From positions 1-58,339 of IMG/VR virus record IMGVR_UViG_3300032224_000787: 58,339 nucleotides of DNA. The stretch is one strand, 5' to 3'. Shown piece by piece: positions 1,384-55,629 of the stretch. Source of the DNA: a virus. Lineage: Duplodnaviria > Caudoviricetes. The position numbers and the translations under genes are program-made. The notes below the pieces were generated by a model. That model ran no database searches and had not been told where the DNA came from. It saw nothing but the letters and a program-made list of their open reading frames with translations. Positions within the stretch are counted from its first letter, which is position 1, and each line of letters opens with the position of its first letter.

Positions 1384-1961
1384 TAGAATTCATTTATTAG
1401 ACAGTAGCTAACTGACTTCTCAGTCTTTAGCAACTTGATCATCGTTTTGTACTTGTCTACGTTGTTCACTACTTGGCAACCAGCTGACCACCAGCCGATG
1501 TTAGTTCCTGATGGTTTACTTAGGTCGTAAGTGTTTGGGTGGAAATTGATCCCGAAATAACCTTCCTGAAGCTTTCCTTGCTCTTCTGATTTATCATCCT
1601 TGTCGGTATCTCTGTATGCCTTAACCTTTGCCCCCAATTGTAATAAGGCTTCGACCTTTCCTTGGTGCTTACCAAACTTCCACACATTATAGTACCACTC
1701 CTCTGATTTGAGGACACCAGCTCCGTCTTTGTTAACTTTTTCAAATTGCTTTAGTGTAGGTGTTCCAGGATTTGTAGTTCCTGAGGTTACTATAATGAAT
1801 TCTTCCCCCTTGAATAAATAAAATTTGTCATCAAATGAGTTGGGTTTATCTTCATTTGATCGAACACCTAAAAGCCAATAACCTTTAGGTACTTCTTTGA
1901 ATGATTTGAGTTCCTTAACTCTAGCAAGTAACTCCTTATCAGTAAATGTTCTTACCGCCAT
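1383..1961 (-). CDS. Putative endolysin with YkuD/L,D-transpeptidase-like catalytic motif
   Basis: H-x17-SAGC motif (NFHPNTY...WWSAGCQVV); directly downstream of holin-like and spanin-like genes. Confidence 0.65.
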   Translation of the reverse strand: MAVRTFTDKELLARVKELKSFKEVPKGYWLLGVRSNEDKPNSFDDKFYLFKGEEFIIVTSGTTNPGTPTLKQFEKVNKDGAGVLKSEEWYYNVWKFGKHQGKVEALLQLGAKVKAYRDTDKDDKSEEQGKLQEGYFGINFHPNTYDLSKPSGTNIGWWSAGCQVVNNVDKYKTMIKLLKTEKSVSYCLINEF

Positions 1962-3823: not shown

Positions 3824-5172
3824 AAGCTATTTTTATAAGTGTTCCAAGAGTTGATAAAATTGGTGTGCTCAGCAATCATTGAAGCTCCCATCGCATAAGC
3901 TGCGCAAGTGTGTGCTGCGTACACTGTGGAAGAACGTAGAACAAATTGGTTTGAACTCTGAACAGATGTTGAAGTCTGCGTTGTACTTGATCCTGTTGTA
4001 CTATTGTATAGAGTCACATCAACTAATGATGTTCTGTGAATTGATTTTGTGTTGACAGTAGCAGTAAAATCAAAGGCAGCTAATAAAAGGTTACTACTTC
4101 CAGCATTTATTCTTTGTTGATTAGTTGAAGATCTTAGCATTGAATTAATACCAGATAGTGCGTTACCATCAAATCTACCCGCACCACTAATTGCATGAGT
4201 AAAGAAGTAGCGTGAAGCGTTATTTAATGTGTATTGAACTCCTTGCGTTGCTGGGTTGAAGTTGGTATCGATATAGCTGCTTGTGCCGTTACCCATTAAA
4301 CCTCCATTACTCACAAATGTAGGAGCATTGACGAGTGTTGATTGGTTAGCATTAGGATTTTTCCAGTTGAGCGTGCCAAAATCAGATCCTCCATCTTGAG
4401 CGAACACATAGAATACATCCAGCTTCGCCCATACACCGATTGTTTTCATCGAAGTAAGCAATGTGTTCTGCTTAACTTTTACGCTGTCGCTTGGTAGGGT
4501 ATAACCAAAACCTACGGATGACGCCTTGTCCAAAATTGCTTGGTAGTCTGCATCAAAGGCAGCAACTGCAATGGCATTTGAGTTGGCAACAGTCGAGCCG
4601 ATTACATTGGTAGCAGTCACAACGCAACGCACATTCGCTCCCCTGTCAGCATAGACGAGAAGGTATGTCGATGATGTAGCACCCGAAATCGGTGAGTTAT
4701 TACGCTGCCATTGGTAGGCGTATGTAATTGGTAAAGGGTTGGCAGTCCAAGTTCCATCGGTTGTTGTCAAAGTTTGACCTACTACACCTGAACCACTAAC
4801 CACAGGGGCAACCGTATTGACAGGAGCTGTGAATGTTTGAACAGTAATTGTATTTGATGTTGCATTACCTGATCCCAAGTTGTTTGTCGCAGTTACAACA
4901 CAAGTAATATTTGCGGCTGAATCTGCCACAACAATGGTGTATGTCGATGAGGTTGCACCGGAAATTGGTGAACCATTACGGCGCCATTGATAAGTGTAAG
5001 TAGGTATAGGACTGCCTGTCCATGTTCCTGTAGTAGAGCTCAATACACTACCAAGAGAAGTGCTTCCGCTGATTACAGGGGCAACCGTATTTATAGGTAT
5101 AGTTCCTCCAATAAAAATACTTGTGCCATTAGGCCCTCCAAGTTTTTTAGAGAAATTTATGTTAGTAGCCAT
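3820..5172 (-). CDS. Virion protein with two tandem Ig-like repeats and a C-terminal beta (lectin-like) domain
   Basis: Two ~90-aa repeats P.NTVAPV.SG...TT.GTWT..P.P..Y.YQW.RN.SPISGATSSTY....AD..AN..CVVTATN. Confidence 0.7.
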   Translation of the reverse strand: MATNINFSKKLGGPNGTSIFIGGTIPINTVAPVISGSTSLGSVLSSTTGTWTGSPIPTYTYQWRRNGSPISGATSSTYTIVVADSAANITCVVTATNNLGSGNATSNTITVQTFTAPVNTVAPVVSGSGVVGQTLTTTDGTWTANPLPITYAYQWQRNNSPISGATSSTYLLVYADRGANVRCVVTATNVIGSTVANSNAIAVAAFDADYQAILDKASSVGFGYTLPSDSVKVKQNTLLTSMKTIGVWAKLDVFYVFAQDGGSDFGTLNWKNPNANQSTLVNAPTFVSNGGLMGNGTSSYIDTNFNPATQGVQYTLNNASRYFFTHAISGAGRFDGNALSGINSMLRSSTNQQRINAGSSNLLLAAFDFTATVNTKSIHRTSLVDVTLYNSTTGSSTTQTSTSVQSSNQFVLRSSTVYAAHTCAAYAMGASMIAEHTNFINSWNTYKNSL

Positions 5173-42855: not shown

Positions 42856-43395
42856 TTATTCGTTATTTGAGTACTGCTCCTCTAGATCCTCATTTCGTTG
42901 AGGCATACGATCAAATTCTTTTACGCAGTAGAAGAGCTTCTTAATTGTTCCTTTGTAAAAGTATATAGGGTTGACCATGTAGGTTCGGCGATTTTTTTCG
43001 ATTGTAAATCTAATAATATCTTTGGCACAAAGTTCTTTGATGCTACTCATCACAAACTTCATATTCATATCCGTTAACTGTTGGATATCACGCAAACTGT
43101 AATTTTTCAAAGTATTACCGTATCCCATCTGTTGGGTCATAAAGCGCAACATACGATTAGCCGAAGGCTTAACTTGATTCATAATGGTAAGTGACTCAGT
43201 AAAGGTAATCATGTACCTCATCTTTTTCCTACGCAATAAGTTCGCAATGACATCGTCAGCCTGCGCATTATACCCCTCGGCAATAGGAACGAACTCTCCT
43301 CTCTGATTCTTGTAGTACAGATCCAGGCCCTTTACTTTTTGATTGATCACCCTGTCGGCCTCCAGCAGGATTAAGTCGAATACTATGTTGTTCAT
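42856..43395 (-). CDS. RepL-like winged-helix protein
   Basis: SLRDIQQLTDMN...SIKEL...II...YMVNPIYFYKG matches the RepL-type wHTH pattern. Confidence 0.6.
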   Translation of the reverse strand: MNNIVFDLILLEADRVINQKVKGLDLYYKNQRGEFVPIAEGYNAQADDVIANLLRRKKMRYMITFTESLTIMNQVKPSANRMLRFMTQQMGYGNTLKNYSLRDIQQLTDMNMKFVMSSIKELCAKDIIRFTIEKNRRTYMVNPIYFYKGTIKKLFYCVKEFDRMPQRNEDLEEQYSNNE

Positions 43396-43712
43396 TTCTT
43401 AGATTGTAAATTACGATTCACAATAAGTGAATCCACATTAAGTTTAATTTTCTTTAGGTGTGATATCGTCTGCTTATGTCGGGTATGCTCATAGAATATC
43501 AATCCATTTAGAGCCCTCCCGAATTCAATAACACTCATATCTCCTTTCATCTTATTACAATCTCCACAGGCAGGTACTTTATTTGCATTACTCAACTTAC
43601 CCCCTCTGCTCTTAGGTACTAAGTGATCTAATGTAAAACTATATTCATCAAGAGAAACTTTGCAGTATGCGCAAACATCAAGGTTTACACCGTTTTTACT
43701 ATACCCCCTCAT
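43392..43712 (-). CDS. HNH endonuclease (Zn-binding, possibly packaging-associated)
   Basis: CAYC...TLDHLVPKSRGG...N...ACGDCNKMKG. Confidence 0.85.
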   Translation of the reverse strand: MRGYSKNGVNLDVCAYCKVSLDEYSFTLDHLVPKSRGGKLSNANKVPACGDCNKMKGDMSVIEFGRALNGLIFYEHTRHKQTISHLKKIKLNVDSLIVNRNLQSKK

Positions 43713-44232
43713 TTAAAGATTCTTTTAGTTTTTGATTATATGCGTATGCTGCTTTTGTTTCGCAATTAAACCTTCCCATTCTATGTTTTTTCCCATTGAT
43801 TGATATTGATGCAACCCATTTACCTCGAGCCTTGTCAAATGTAACACCAATATAATTGCTGTATTTATTATTTCGGATGGATTTTATTGAGTTGACTCTT
43901 TGAGATGTTACCTGTAGATTAGACAAGTTGTTATTTAATTTGTCTCCATCAATATGATCTATCACTTGTTTCATGCCGCATCGTTCATAGCCAAGAAAGG
44001 TCATAGCTACCAAAGTGTGAATTCTGTACAAGGTATTCTTACCCGTCCATAAGTTAACAGAATAGTATCCCTTATTATTTAATGAAGGTTTTAATATATA
44101 TTCTTCTTTTGGATAAGGTGTATTTTTATTCCAACATAATCTATTCAGACTTTTAACCCTGCCTAAATTACTTACCTGGTATCTAAATTCAAAGCCAGGT
44201 ATATCTCTCCAAATTTCATTGACTGCTTTCAT
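43699..44232 (-). CDS. NUMOD4-HNH-AP2 homing endonuclease
   Basis: EIWRDIPGFE.RYQVSNLGRVKS (NUMOD4), IDHIDGDKLNN..SNL (HNH), YIGV.F.K...KWVA.I...G.F...AA.AYN (AP2). Confidence 0.9.
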   Translation of the reverse strand: MKAVNEIWRDIPGFEFRYQVSNLGRVKSLNRLCWNKNTPYPKEEYILKPSLNNKGYYSVNLWTGKNTLYRIHTLVAMTFLGYERCGMKQVIDHIDGDKLNNNLSNLQVTSQRVNSIKSIRNNKYSNYIGVTFDKARGKWVASISINGKKHRMGRFNCETKAAYAYNQKLKESLNEGV

Positions 44233-44236
44233 GTTG

Positions 44237-44244
44237 CAAATATA
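44237..44244 (-). promoter_or_regulatory. Bacteroidota sigmaA -7 element, leaderless arrangement
   Basis: TATATTTG-CAAC-ATG on the minus strand. Confidence 0.65.
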
Positions 44245-44330
44245 TAAATTATATTTAAGAAAACAAGCACTTTGTAGGCACTTCTGTCAGAACAACTTGT
44301 GTATACTTTTTCACATACTAACTTGTTACT

Positions 44331-44343
44331 AATCAACAACTTA
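44331..44343 (+). promoter_or_regulatory. IHF-like binding site
   Basis: AATCAACAACTTA matches WATCAAnnnnTTR. Confidence 0.45.
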
Positions 44344-44583
44344 CAAATAGTCTCTATATACTGTTTATCTCTACATGATCCTAACAGAATATCATTGATG
44401 CCCATAAATAAGTAATTAGGTGTACGCAGTACTCCTGATTGATTATTGCCGGGATAGTATCAGCCTGTATACTAATCATTTATTTCTATACACACGTCTG
44501 GTACTTGGATAGTACTACTACCCCTCCCCTTTTATATCGGAACTTTTATACAATTTAGTTATATACCTTGTGTCTCCTGGAAA

Positions 44584-44635
44584 AGTTTCTGTATTTTTTG
44601 AGGTTGACTCAGAATAGTTTCTGTATTTTTTGAGG
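44584..44635. repeat. Perfect 20-bp direct repeat x2
   Basis: AGTTTCTGTATTTTTTGAGG at 44584-44603 and 44616-44635. Confidence 0.9.
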
Positions 44636-44984
44636 ACTTATACGCCTTAACCCATCCCCTCCCGTTCTCCACCGAAAACTCGCTTGCCAAAGTGCCTCAT
44701 TCTCAGCAACTTAACTATCTTTTATTCAACCTTTAGTTCACGTTCTTTGCCTCATTCGTGGTTTGTTATGTATATACGTATTTATGTGGCGGATATAGAC
44801 ATACATCTAACCTATTTTTACTACTTAATTACGCTAAAAATAGCTACATTTTGTTCCGTTTGTTTGGGTCTTATTCGTTCTAAAAATACCCTTTTTTGTA
44901 CTAAATTCATGTTTTTTATCAATTTGTAAATAACTGATTTTCAGTTAGTTATAATTTCAAGATTACATTTTTTATAATTTTTTA

Positions 44985-45014
44985 TTGAAATTCAAAATTT
45001 AGTTTATATATTTG
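44985..45014 (+). promoter_or_regulatory. Main early promoter (Bacteroidota sigmaA)
   Basis: TTG (44985-87), 19-nt spacer, TATATTTG (45007-14), AT-rich upstream. Confidence 0.75.
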
Positions 45015-45018
45015 GAAT

Positions 45019-45340
45019 GTCATTGAACGACAGCCAACGGGCTTCACATAGTTGCAATGACGGAACGATACGCAGCAATGCACAACGGGCGCAATGCTCG
45101 GCAAAGCTGCAAAGGTTTACGCAATGTTTACCGATACCTTTTATAGGGCGTTTCAAGTTCTTTGAAATATAGTTTAGTAGTTGTTTGCAGCCGTCCGCAA
45201 GGGGAAAAGCAAGCACGCAAAGTTGGACGACCAACAAAACATGGCACATATAAGAGTGCAGCGGGCTAATTTAAGGGATTTACTTTAGCCGTATACATGG
45301 GATTCAAAATGAGATATGTATATAGAAATACTACAAACGA
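45019..45340 (+). ncRNA. Structured early leader RNA with boxA-like element
   Basis: Several complementary stems (GTCATTG/CAATGAC, GCAGC/GCTGC, AAAGGT/ACCTTT, CGTCC/GGACG, GGCTAA/TTAGCC, TATACAT/ATGTATA); AAGTTCTTTGAAA at 45155-45167; no convincing ORF. Confidence 0.5.
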
Positions 45341-45351
45341 GCTTTAAAAAA

Positions 45352-45420
45352 GGTTAACTGATGAGCTTTTATTAAGCGAAACGTGAGCAAGTTGAAATAA
45401 TTACTTGCTGCGTCTTAACC
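45352..45420 (+). ncRNA. Type I hammerhead ribozyme 1
   Basis: Stem I GGTTAA/TTAACC; CTGATGA 45358-64; stem II GCTT-ttatt-AAGC; GAAA 45378-81; stem III ACG..AGCAAGT/ACTTGCT..CGT; GTC cleavage triplet 45412-14. Confidence 0.93.
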
Positions 45421-45437
45421 ACTTAAATTTTTTTATC

Positions 45438-45824
45438 ATGAATGCAACTACAAAAAACACAGCAACAAAGAAAGCCGCAACAACTACAAAAGTAGTAAGC
45501 GCACCTAAAGCAGCAGCAAAGAAAGCAGCAGCAGCGCCAAAAGTTACTTATCTTGCAGAAGGTGTAACGGGCAAAAAAATGATGCAGTCAATTTATGCTG
45601 CAAACAATGCGCACAAAAAAGATATGGGCAGCTTTAGCCAATGTTTGAAACGTTCTTTAGAATTCGGAAGCGCTGAATTTACCAAAACTATCAAAGGCTT
45701 TGACGTCAAAGATTGCACACCGAAAAACTTAATCCCACTACGTAACGCAAAGCGTGGTGTTGATGCATCATTCAGTGTATACGAAGTATTGATGCTCATC
45801 AAGAAATTCTACCAAACAAAGTAA
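45438..45824 (+). CDS. First early protein, basic with K/A/T-rich histone-H1-like N-terminal tail (128 aa)
   Basis: ATG45438; TKKAATTTKVVSAPKAAAKKAAAAPK; the stop codon directly abuts hammerhead 2. Confidence 0.85.
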   Translation: MNATTKNTATKKAATTTKVVSAPKAAAKKAAAAPKVTYLAEGVTGKKMMQSIYAANNAHKKDMGSFSQCLKRSLEFGSAEFTKTIKGFDVKDCTPKNLIPLRNAKRGVDASFSVYEVLMLIKKFYQTK

Positions 45825-45897
45825 GGTTAACTGATGAGTCCTAAATGGACGAAACGCGAAGGGGTGTACTATGTATGCCCCTTTTTGCGTCTTAACC
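45825..45897 (+). ncRNA. Type I hammerhead ribozyme 2
   Basis: Stem I GGTTAA/TTAACC; CTGATGA 45831-37; stem II GTCC-taaat-GGAC; GAAA 45851-54; long stem III ACGCGAAGGGGTGTAC/GTATGCCCCTTTTTGCGT; GTC 45889-91. Confidence 0.95.
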
Positions 45898-45913
45898 AAT
45901 TAATTATCTACCA

Positions 45914-46090
45914 ATGAAAAAGAACATTTTAATAGCCTTTATAGTATTGGGCTTAATAGGAATACTATGCTCGTTATGGCTCATGATGACCGCACAAGAT
46001 GTAAGCAATTTCAGGCTTTCGTACATAAGCCTATTCGGATGGGGCATTGTGTTCGGGGCATCGGCAATAGCAGAATGTGAAACAAACTAA
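45914..46090 (+). CDS. Small two-TM membrane protein (58 aa)
   Basis: MKKNILIAFIVLGLIGILCSLWLMMTAQ...YISLFGWGIVFGASAIAECETN; starts 22 nt after the hammerhead 2 cleavage site. Confidence 0.7.
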   Translation: MKKNILIAFIVLGLIGILCSLWLMMTAQDVSNFRLSYISLFGWGIVFGASAIAECETN

Positions 46091-46102
46091 AGCAGAGAAC
46101 AA

Positions 46103-46324
46103 ATGAGAGTACAAATTAACAAGGTTTGGAGTGCAGAAGTACTGCGCCCAAGCAACAAGACAAATGTGTTCCTATGCAATCCTGGCGAGGTGAAGGGGCA
46201 ATGGATAAGCATAGATAGGTACGTCAAGCTGAAGGAATTGGTGCGAAAATACACCAACATACAGGAGGTACTATACGAAGATCAAGAGGACTATACTATT
46301 CACTACTTAATACAAAAGCCATGA
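46103..46324 (+). CDS. Hypothetical early protein
   Basis: ORF with A-rich leader. Confidence 0.65.
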   Translation: MRVQINKVWSAEVLRPSNKTNVFLCNPGEVKGQWISIDRYVKLKELVRKYTNIQEVLYEDQEDYTIHYLIQKP

Positions 46325-46415
46325 GCGCAGGAGATATCATATACCTATCAATAGTACTAAACTTTGTACTATTCATCAAGTACTTACAATATAGACCAAA
46401 GAAATAACATTCTGT

Positions 46416-54560: not shown

Positions 54561-55562
54561 ATGAAAAAATACATAGTATATAAAATAGTGTTTAGAGAAC
54601 ATATGGCAGTTTATGTTGGGTGTACAAGCAATTTAAAACAAAGACTAAGTCAGCATAGGGAGTGCAGAACAAACACTAGGATCTATAACTTTATTAAAAA
54701 AAATAATTTAGTAGATGATCTTGAGTTAATTCCTGTTGCTTCTTTTAATTCCAAGCGAGAAGCATTGACGTTTGAGAAGAGGTTTATATATAGAGTTAGT
54801 ACAATGACACTATATAACATTTTAAATCAAACGTGGACTAAGGAATGTAAATTCCCTGCCTCTGGACTTAGTGGAGAGTTAAGCAAGTCTTCTAAAGAGT
54901 GGGCCGTATTAAATCTAAAAAGCAAAGAAGTTATGAATGTCATATCTTTGAAGAGCTTTGGTGATAAAAACAACCTTAACTATAAAGATTTGCACGCTTG
55001 CGCATTAGGTAAAATTAATATCTCTCAAGGATATAAGTGCTTTAGAAAATCCGAATGGGATTCTTTTACTGATGAACAAAAAGATTATTACGCTTCTGAT
55101 GACTTCCTTAATAATCTAAAGGAAGTAAAGTCGCAAAAACTTTTTAATGTGAACGCAAAAGAATACATAGTGTTGACTCCTGATGGAGATAAGTTAAATG
55201 TAATTGGTTTAGATAGATACGCTGAATCAAAAGGACTTAACAAAGGTAACCTGGCCTCAACAGCAATGCCTAAAAATTACGGTAAGTATTGTAAAGGCTA
55301 TCGAGCATTTAGAATTAATGATTGGAATAATTTTACACAACAACAAATAAATGATATTTTAAGCGCATCTAAAACCTATCGAATTGCTGGGAAGCCTAAA
55401 CGTAAAGACGTAGGTAATCAGCAGCCAAGCTGTGGAAACACAGAAGGTTCAACGACTATCGAAAGCATGATTGATGAAAGTCAATTAGAAGCGAGTAGAG
55501 TAGGGCACAAGCTATTGGTGTCCGAAGCGGTAGGCATACGTAAGTATGATGATATAGTCTAA
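54561..55562 (+). CDS. Intron-encoded GIY-YIG homing endonuclease
   Basis: YIVYKI...YVGCTSNLKQRLSQH...E...N catalytic domain; two repeated C-terminal DNA-binding modules. Confidence 0.85.
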   Translation: MKKYIVYKIVFREHMAVYVGCTSNLKQRLSQHRECRTNTRIYNFIKKNNLVDDLELIPVASFNSKREALTFEKRFIYRVSTMTLYNILNQTWTKECKFPASGLSGELSKSSKEWAVLNLKSKEVMNVISLKSFGDKNNLNYKDLHACALGKINISQGYKCFRKSEWDSFTDEQKDYYASDDFLNNLKEVKSQKLFNVNAKEYIVLTPDGDKLNVIGLDRYAESKGLNKGNLASTAMPKNYGKYCKGYRAFRINDWNNFTQQQINDILSASKTYRIAGKPKRKDVGNQQPSCGNTEGSTTIESMIDESQLEASRVGHKLLVSEAVGIRKYDDIV

Positions 55563-55629
55563 TCTATATAGAAATATATAGCAGTTTAATAAACGGTTAT
55601 GAATTTAGCGAGTCATAATGAATATAATG

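Follow-up and report, generated by a model that had tools for sequence, protein, structure and literature searches.

Two hammerhead ribozyme motifs flank a small phage gene and probably mark independent processing sites in its transcript

Why would a tailed dsDNA phage place a self-cleaving RNA on each side of a single small gene? The question is raised by the IMG/VR virus record IMGVR_UViG_3300032224_000787, a stretch of 58,339 bases that is classed as linear, is estimated to be 84% complete, and is referred to here as the window. Within 45352-45897 on its plus strand lie two hammerhead motifs, hammerhead 1 (HH1) and hammerhead 2 (HH2), which bracket an open reading frame (ORF) for a protein of 128 aa. 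A first-pass annotation had read this pair as a device that excises the gene as a potentially circular mRNA. Judged by their sequences, HH1 and HH2 are very probably active hammerheads of a class that is common in phages. We consider it probable that each serves as an independent processing site in the rightward transcript, which would yield linear mRNAs with leaders of 22-23 nt that begin with a 5'-hydroxyl (5'-OH) and with 3' ends capped by a ribozyme. The parts of the two elements, as read from the sequence, are as follows.

45352-45420, plus strand: HH1, type I, with a predicted cut after C45414
45352-45357, plus strand: HH1 stem I, 5' strand, GGUUAA
45358-45364, plus strand: HH1 core, CUGAUGA
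45365-45377, plus strand: HH1 stem-loop II, GCUU-UUAUU-AAGC
45378-45381, plus strand: HH1 GAAA
45382-45412, plus strand: HH1 stem III, 31 nt
45413-45414, plus strand: HH1 U45413 and cleavage nucleotide C45414 (GUC triplet)
45415-45420, plus strand: HH1 stem I, 3' strand, UUAACC
45825-45897, plus strand: HH2, type I, with a predicted cut after C45891
45825-45830, plus strand: HH2 stem I, 5' strand, GGUUAA
45831-45837, plus strand: HH2 core, CUGAUGA
45838-45850, plus strand: HH2 stem-loop II, GUCC-UAAAU-GGAC
45851-45854, plus strand: HH2 GAAA
45855-45889, plus strand: HH2 stem III, 35 nt, including a GGGG...CCCC hairpin and, after it, a U-run
45890-45891, plus strand: HH2 U45890 and cleavage nucleotide C45891 (GUC triplet)
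45892-45897, plus strand: HH2 stem I, 3' strand, UUAACC

Both elements contain the complete type I core (C3-U4-G5-A6-N7-G8-A9 with G12-A13-A14) in the right order and spacing. Each also has an A15.1-U16.1 pair and a cleavage site of the NUH form that is not G, with GUC as the triplet and C45414 or C45891 at position 17. In minimum-energy folds, the three helices formed with an open stem I, loops capping stems II and III, and a G10.1-C11.1 pair closing stem II. An A residue lies just 5' of each stem I (A45351 and A45824) and just 3' of it (A45421 and A45898). The structure and coordinates given for the pair in the first-pass annotation were borne out base for base in the sequence of 45100-46300.

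The motifs stand out clearly from background. The pattern CTGATGA-N6-30-CGAAAC occurs twice in the window, compared with an expectation of 0.03, and none of 100 shuffles reached two occurrences. A full descriptor comprising the core, three stems and cleavage triplet, applied to both strands, matched exactly HH1 and HH2 and gave a mean of 0.0 matches per shuffle on 50 shuffled windows. When HH1 and HH2 were folded in isolation, the minimum-energy structure was exactly the hammerhead three-way junction (z of -2.6 and -5.7, respectively), and HH2 kept this fold with its natural flanks. We also used a class covariance model, R1, derived from 52 hammerheads of other phages, with none from the window or its relatives. 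Aligned over the full model length, HH1 scored 56.5 bits (E 6.8e-13) and HH2 60.9 bits (E 4.1e-14), although these scores are inflated because approximately 30 of the 52 sequences carry a GGUUAA stem I. The R1 scan of the window returned nothing beyond these two elements.

Relatives of the phage were found through the flanked 128-aa protein and a 73-aa protein encoded downstream, which gave nine distinct members with the window counted among them; relatives of the flanked protein are 66-75% identical. The elements that each member carries before and after its first gene are listed below.

Window and L124: intact HH1 before the first gene; intact HH2 after it
L123: HH1 with a C/A mismatch at the base of stem II before; hairpin and U-run only after
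L125/126: HH1 with a U4C core change before; hairpin and U-run only after
L364: canonical HH1 core with different stems II and III before; hairpin and U-run only after
L059, L120 and L368: no hammerhead before the first gene, an unrelated gene of 142 aa; HH2 homologue after
L369: none before; none after

Both ribozymes are therefore intact in two of the nine. Across HH1 in four protein-found sequences, 95.2% of cells were paired, compared with 25-42.5% when the partners were slid, and four pairs had changed on both sides while stem I was invariant. Compensatory changes among the relatives fall in stems II and III, including a compensated change in stem II of L123. HH2 has homologues in L124, L059, L120 and L368, and the second pair of its stem III is G-C, A-U or U-A among the window, L124 and L059. 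In all nine elements of the phage group, stem I is the same and stems II and III vary. Taken together, the complete core, the three stems, the compensatory changes and the class-model scores support the original call of two ribozymes.

Similar elements are widespread in phages. A scan of viral contigs for stem I and the core word returned at least 120 loci, and complete type I hammerheads were present in 59 among the at least 120 loci listed, often in arrays of two to six. Two scans without a fixed stem I, referred to here as unbiased, added 226 further loci, 96 of them with hammerheads. The notion that a GGUUAA stem I is conserved across many phages was rejected as a bias of the search pattern, because the unbiased scans gave diverse stems I. 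A stem I of exactly 6 bp occurs in 50 of 72 cases in the unbiased set and in 75 of 82 in the GGUUAA set, the latter among the matches listed, and an A lies just outside its two strands in 81%/75% (unbiased) and 98%/94% (GGUUAA set, again among the matches listed). Stem-loop II is mostly 13 nt long, with a loop of 5 nt that begins with U in nearly all members and ends with U in most.

The position of these elements relative to genes is also distinctive. For 69 of 224 distinct hammerheads, the predicted cut is followed after 20-24 nt by an ATG that opens an ORF of 40 aa or more, a spacing seen at 23 of 1120 positions drawn at random from the same loci; with 15-34 nt allowed, the corresponding counts are 142 of 224 and 100 of 1120. 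On the other side, an upstream open frame ends between -10 and +4 nt from stem I in 100 of 158 sites. HH1 and HH2 belong to this class by their A-flanked stem I of 6 bp, their stem-loop II of 13 nt, and their leaders of 23 and 22 nt. The more cautious part of the first-pass annotation, that the ribozymes would give two genes uniform leaders of 22-23 nt, is supported by the class as a whole, since 22 and 23 nt are the commonest leader lengths for the 224 other phage hammerheads. Eight array loci (L004, L007, L028, L079, L080, L087, L089 and L124) contain many canonical type I motifs, none of which Rfam called at gathering scores, and the class is under-detected by its curated models.

The GGUUAA type of stem I is also found on 11 contigs of prokaryote genomes. 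Five of the 11 are from Bacteroidota, which hints at the host phylum of the class. In one of these contigs, L249 (a Paraflavitalea chromosome), GGUUAA hammerheads lie at 3868-3898 and 4043-4073 on the minus strand, and L242, L244, L245 and L240 carry them likewise.

What cleavage would accomplish is best seen from the features around the two elements.

44233-45351, strand not assigned: region of approximately 1.1 kb free of long ORFs (from ORF lists), between the leftward and rightward gene blocks, with HH1 at its right end
45415-45437, plus strand: predicted 5'-OH leader of the 128-aa gene, 23 nt, A/U-rich and without a Shine-Dalgarno-like run
45438-45824, plus strand: ORF of 128 aa with a Lys/Ala-rich N-terminus, ATG at 45438 and TAA at 45822-45824; first ORF of the rightward block
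45892-45913, plus strand: predicted 5'-OH leader of the next gene, 22 nt, from the sequence
45914-46090, plus strand: ORF of 58 aa, hydrophobic, with ATG at 45914; first gene on the RNA 3' of the HH2 cut

HH1 ends 17 nt before the ATG at 45438, which sets the leader at 23 nt after the cut. The first base of HH2 directly follows the stop codon of the same gene, and the ATG at 45914 gives a leader of 22 nt after the second cut. Cleavage by HH1 would release the message from a long upstream untranslated RNA, and cleavage by HH2 would separate the first and second genes. Each cut would supply the downstream gene with a short, unstructured, A/U-rich leader that starts with a 5'-OH, and would give the upstream RNA a 3' end made of a compact ribozyme fold and a 2',3'-cyclic phosphate. 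The products would be mainly linear. The motifs, their conservation with compensatory changes, their membership in the class and their start-codon spacing are direct observations, from which we infer cleavage and its effects on stability and translation. That the two elements act independently is suggested by their single occurrence in different relatives: HH1 without HH2 in L123, L125/126 and L364, and HH2 without HH1 in L059, L120 and L368. The alternative that a phage keeps both ribozymes or neither was ruled out by L364, which has a canonical HH1 alone, together with the three phages that have HH2 alone.

Several observations, in addition to the inflated class-model scores, weigh against independent processing by active ribozymes. 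Neither HH1 nor HH2 reached an Rfam gathering score. In a permissive scan, RAGATH-1-hammerhead (RF03152) gave 24.0 and 19.6 bits compared with a gathering score of 56.3, and Hammerhead_1 (RF00163) gave 20.2 bits compared with 34, with an alignment in which the length of stem III puts the 3' half in the wrong place. Neither element showed an internal loop or pseudoknot, the conserved A residues at its flanks being all that was seen. When HH1 was folded with its natural flanks (45340-45440), the lowest energy went to a slightly more stable alternative that lacks its stems I and II. The U4C change in L125/126 and the C/A mismatch in L123 suggest that some relatives may cleave poorly or do without cleavage. 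No promoter was located, with sigma-70-like sites no commoner than in shuffles; a Bacteroidetes-type promoter pattern matched four times compared with 2.5 expected, with none of the matches near the locus. A single metatranscriptome run (word share 0.04) yielded one contig of 151 nt at 46199-46345, without joints or RNA ends, which lies outside 45352-45897 and bears on neither ribozyme.

The hairpins within the two stems III offer a different account of the locus, in which the terminator-like hairpin after the gene and the conserved-loop hairpin before it would be the functional units, and the ribozyme parts would be neutral or decaying with little activity. The inner part of HH2 stem III, 45860-45886, is the GGGG...CCCC hairpin with its U-run, which is kept after the same gene in L123, L125/126 and L364, where the ribozyme is absent. 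HH2 therefore seems, from these sequences, to have been built around a terminator-like hairpin or lost from one; the terminator scan did not list this hairpin, and we call it terminator-like by eye. The HH1 loop GAAAUAA is likewise invariant in two contexts, as described below, and the deviations in or next to the core of L123 and L125/126, together with the lack of any ribozyme in L369, also fit this account. However, the cores of the window and L124 are perfect, the stem II change in L123 is compensated, and the fixed distance to the start codon across the class is hard to explain without cleavage. In addition, the text of an earlier study of bacterial and phage hammerheads indicates that a U4C variant was active enough in vivo in a viroid (PMC3088659). 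We regard functional hairpins with barely active ribozymes as quite unlikely.

The second context of the GAAAUAA loop is a putative tRNA-like structure that occupies the position of HH1 in the relatives with the 142-aa gene.

L059 6690-6759, minus strand (on the same contig as L367): tRNA-like structure at the HH1 position; the same element is present in L120
L368, approximately 1690-1755, plus strand: tRNA-like structure at the HH1 position

This element is closed by a helix of 6 bp (GGUUCA/UGAACC or GGUGCA/UGCACC) and has a canonical T-arm, in which three pairs differ between L059 and L368 by compensated changes on both sides; it has no D arm. Compensatory changes occur in its acceptor and T stems, and its hairpin carries the loop found in HH1 stem III. 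Alignment to the Rfam tRNA model covers the full length at 17.1 bits, compared with a gathering score of 29, and ARAGORN detected no tRNA in the window or in seven loci (L059, L120, L123, L124, L125, L368 and L369). We treat a tRNA-like processing signal in L059, L120 and L368 as a lead rather than a finding. If it is correct, two RNA-cutting devices have been used at one site around one hairpin, and the presence of this second kind of processing signal where HH1 would stand fits a processing role better than it fits a need for a pair of ribozymes.

We next consider a feature pointed out in the first-pass annotation, namely that HH1 and HH2 have identical stems I despite unlike stems II and III. 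The two predicted cuts enclose an RNA of 477 nt, 45415-45891, whose 5' UUAACC is indeed complementary to the GGUUAA of HH2. In the circular proposal, the 5' end would pair with the RNA's own 3' GGUUAA and rebuild HH2 across the nick, and ligation by the reverse reaction of the ribozyme or by a host RtcB-type ligase would produce an exonuclease-resistant circle that can be translated. On paper this model is chemically sound. According to the text of PMC3088659, type I is the sole architecture in which most of the ribozyme stays with the cyclic-phosphate product. RtcB is present in 10 of 14 control genomes, including Bacteroides thetaiotaomicron, whereas none was found in the phage record, itself 84% complete.

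Arrays of hammerheads in other phages bear on whether a shared stem I is a general feature. In arrays found through GGUUAA, the 3' strand pairs fully with the next 5' strand in 25 of 30 adjacent pairs among the matches listed, and in the same 30 listed pairs the first four bases of stem II are common to nine and the first five of stem III to four. In unbiased arrays, 10 of 29 adjacent pairs are fully cross-compatible in stem I, compared with 1.1% when the two members come from different loci. Cross-compatibility also exceeds expectation for stem III (9 of 29 compared with 3.7%; stem II, 8 of 29 compared with 14%), so that part of the signal reflects common descent of neighboring ribozymes. The direction of pairing that a circle needs was found in 10 of 29 unbiased pairs and the reverse in seven of 29, with no clear asymmetry. 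A shared stem I is real in some lineages, that of the window included, and is no rule of tandem phage hammerheads.

Other evidence counts against the proposed circle. For ribozyme-derived circular RNAs, the flanking ribozymes are expected to be kept together in relatives, yet the pair here is intact in only two of nine, and 19 of the 29 unbiased pairs fall short of full compatibility. The sole RNA contig lies outside the site and speaks neither for nor against a junction. Folded at minimum energy, the 477-nt RNA has an unpaired 5' end. In that fold, the coding segment CUCAUCA (approximately 45786-45792) pairs with UGAUGAG of the HH2 core (45832-45838); this pairing is a possible competitor of the active fold in the model, and is probably due to chance because its bases are fixed by the protein sequence. 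The idea of circularization is not new, as PMC3088659 raised it for clustered prophage hammerheads; by the account in its text, circular or spliced products were proposed, circles were sought, and neither kind of product was detected. In the literature searched, subscription journals and supplements aside, there was no report of circular mRNAs from phage hammerheads. Circularization of the 477-nt RNA, which the intact pair in two of nine relatives, the unpaired 5' end, the lack of RtcB in the record and the 10 of 29 shared stems all fail to support, is in our view unlikely. We are similarly doubtful of the broader version, in which, in lineages with a uniform stem I, the 5' end of each excised cistron would rebuild its own 3' ribozyme and close either non-covalently or through ligation by the ribozyme or a host ligase. 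If true, it would mean that a DNA phage makes circular or closed-loop mRNAs that encode protein, which would be remarkable if shown.

An invariant stem I could also be explained without any joining of ends, if its 3' strand served as the common 5' end of the processed messages or if the ribozyme marked a recombination boundary for gene cassettes. Consistent with this idea, stems II and III change around a stem I that does not in the nine group elements, and A residues just outside it are conserved. HH2 sits at a mosaic boundary, since the gene upstream of it is either the 128-aa gene or the unrelated 142-aa gene, and the leaders and genes 3' of HH2 differ between L059 and L120. On the other hand, the leader beyond two A residues is only A-rich and not conserved, there is no known binding factor, and an identical run of 14-20 nt is short for homologous exchange. 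We regard a shared 5' end or cassette boundary as quite unlikely, and we continue to favor independent processing into linear mRNAs.

The surroundings of the locus are those of a divergent gene layout. The minus strand of the window encodes a portal protein, a terminase-like protein and structural proteins, and the leftward block contains HNH endonucleases, a RepL-like gene and structural genes. The rightward block consists of small plus-strand genes and opens with HH1. The first-pass annotation had termed the 128-aa gene the first early gene; its place at the head of the rightward block is correct, and "early" follows from its position only. The protein matched no known family when PHROG, Pfam and Atlas were searched, and the 58-aa ORF gave only weak, sub-threshold matches to membrane proteins. 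A DNA similarity search against deposited phages returned no match.

The layout around the 1.1-kb region is the same in L124, L125 and L059, and alignment with these three phages shows conserved blocks within 44233-45351, along with a direct repeat of approximately 20 nt. This non-coding region may be a replication origin. It lies close to the RepL-like ORF at 42856-43395 on the minus strand, from which it is separated by one HNH gene in relatives and by two in the window. The adjacent HNH endonuclease ORFs of the window are at 43392-43712 and 43699-44232, both on the minus strand; the latter, of 177 aa, looks like an insertion in the window phage, because L059 and L368 have a homologue of the first HNH ORF only. 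Elsewhere in the window, a group I intron at 55322-55581 on the plus strand scored 88.3 bits along the whole model, for which the Rfam gathering score is 50, and is the sole gathering-level Rfam match. It overlaps the 3' end of ORF 54561-55562, whose N-terminus is a GIY-YIG nuclease domain.

With two canonical ribozymes, one small gene and exactly predicted ends, the window offers a compact test case for hammerhead function in phages. Results for the class are useful beyond this locus, including the cut spacing of approximately 22 nt, the A-flanked stem I of 6 bp and the elements missed by Rfam, as are the ribozymes built around hairpins that stand free in relatives and the tRNA-like stand-in for a hammerhead. 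We take the class results as an argument that processing is the core function, and they point to the lineages in which a search for circles would be worthwhile.

Hammerheads that flank single prophage genes have been known since 2011 (Perreault et al., PMC3088659), and the text of that report states that in vitro the hammerheads clustered in prophages cut where expected. As in those clusters, the phage DNA here has several hammerheads placed around single genes or short blocks whose identity changes, and the role proposed there, the processing of long phage transcripts to gene-length mRNAs, is the one we favor. The arrangements tested in PMC3088659, as named in its text, were from Clostridium, Azorhizobium and Agrobacterium, whereas five of the 11 contigs with the same type of stem I are from Bacteroidota. 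The stem I class and the 22-nt spacing may already be among the examples of that report. On phage and bacterial hammerheads, a 2019 review goes no further than to note a suggested role in the processing of polycistronic RNA (PMC6765202). The hammerhead of haloviruses HF1 and HF2, as described in the text of PMC3088659, similarly lies shortly (13 nt) before the start codon of the first ORF in an early polycistronic transcript, with a mapped 5' end no more than 3 nt from the hammerhead cut. However, it is a core variant from an archaeal virus that needs high Mg2+, and the core here is canonical.

Type I hammerheads from RNA viruses that infect fungi and plants resemble HH1 and HH2 in their long helix III and in their position in the 5' untranslated region just before an ORF, where they are tied to translation initiation; the available account likens them to bacterial and phage type I elements, although their setting is eukaryotic. 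Among curated families, Hammerhead_1 and RAGATH-1-hammerhead have the same core. The HH2 stem-loop II, GUCC-UAAAU-GGAC, is near the Hammerhead_1 consensus, and the 5' hairpin of RAGATH-1 has no convincing match in HH1 or HH2. The hammerheads of viroids, satellite RNAs and retrozymes, as described in the text of PMC7761336 and PMC5680766, likewise produce joinable 5'-OH and cyclic-phosphate ends from two cuts and have interchangeable stem I strands. Those ribozymes are copies of one repeat, and their circles are non-coding and replicate or retrotranspose. In contrast to viroids and retrozymes, stems II and III differ here, and the RNA is the mRNA of a DNA phage. The locus thereby adds to the known clustered phage hammerheads that flank single genes.

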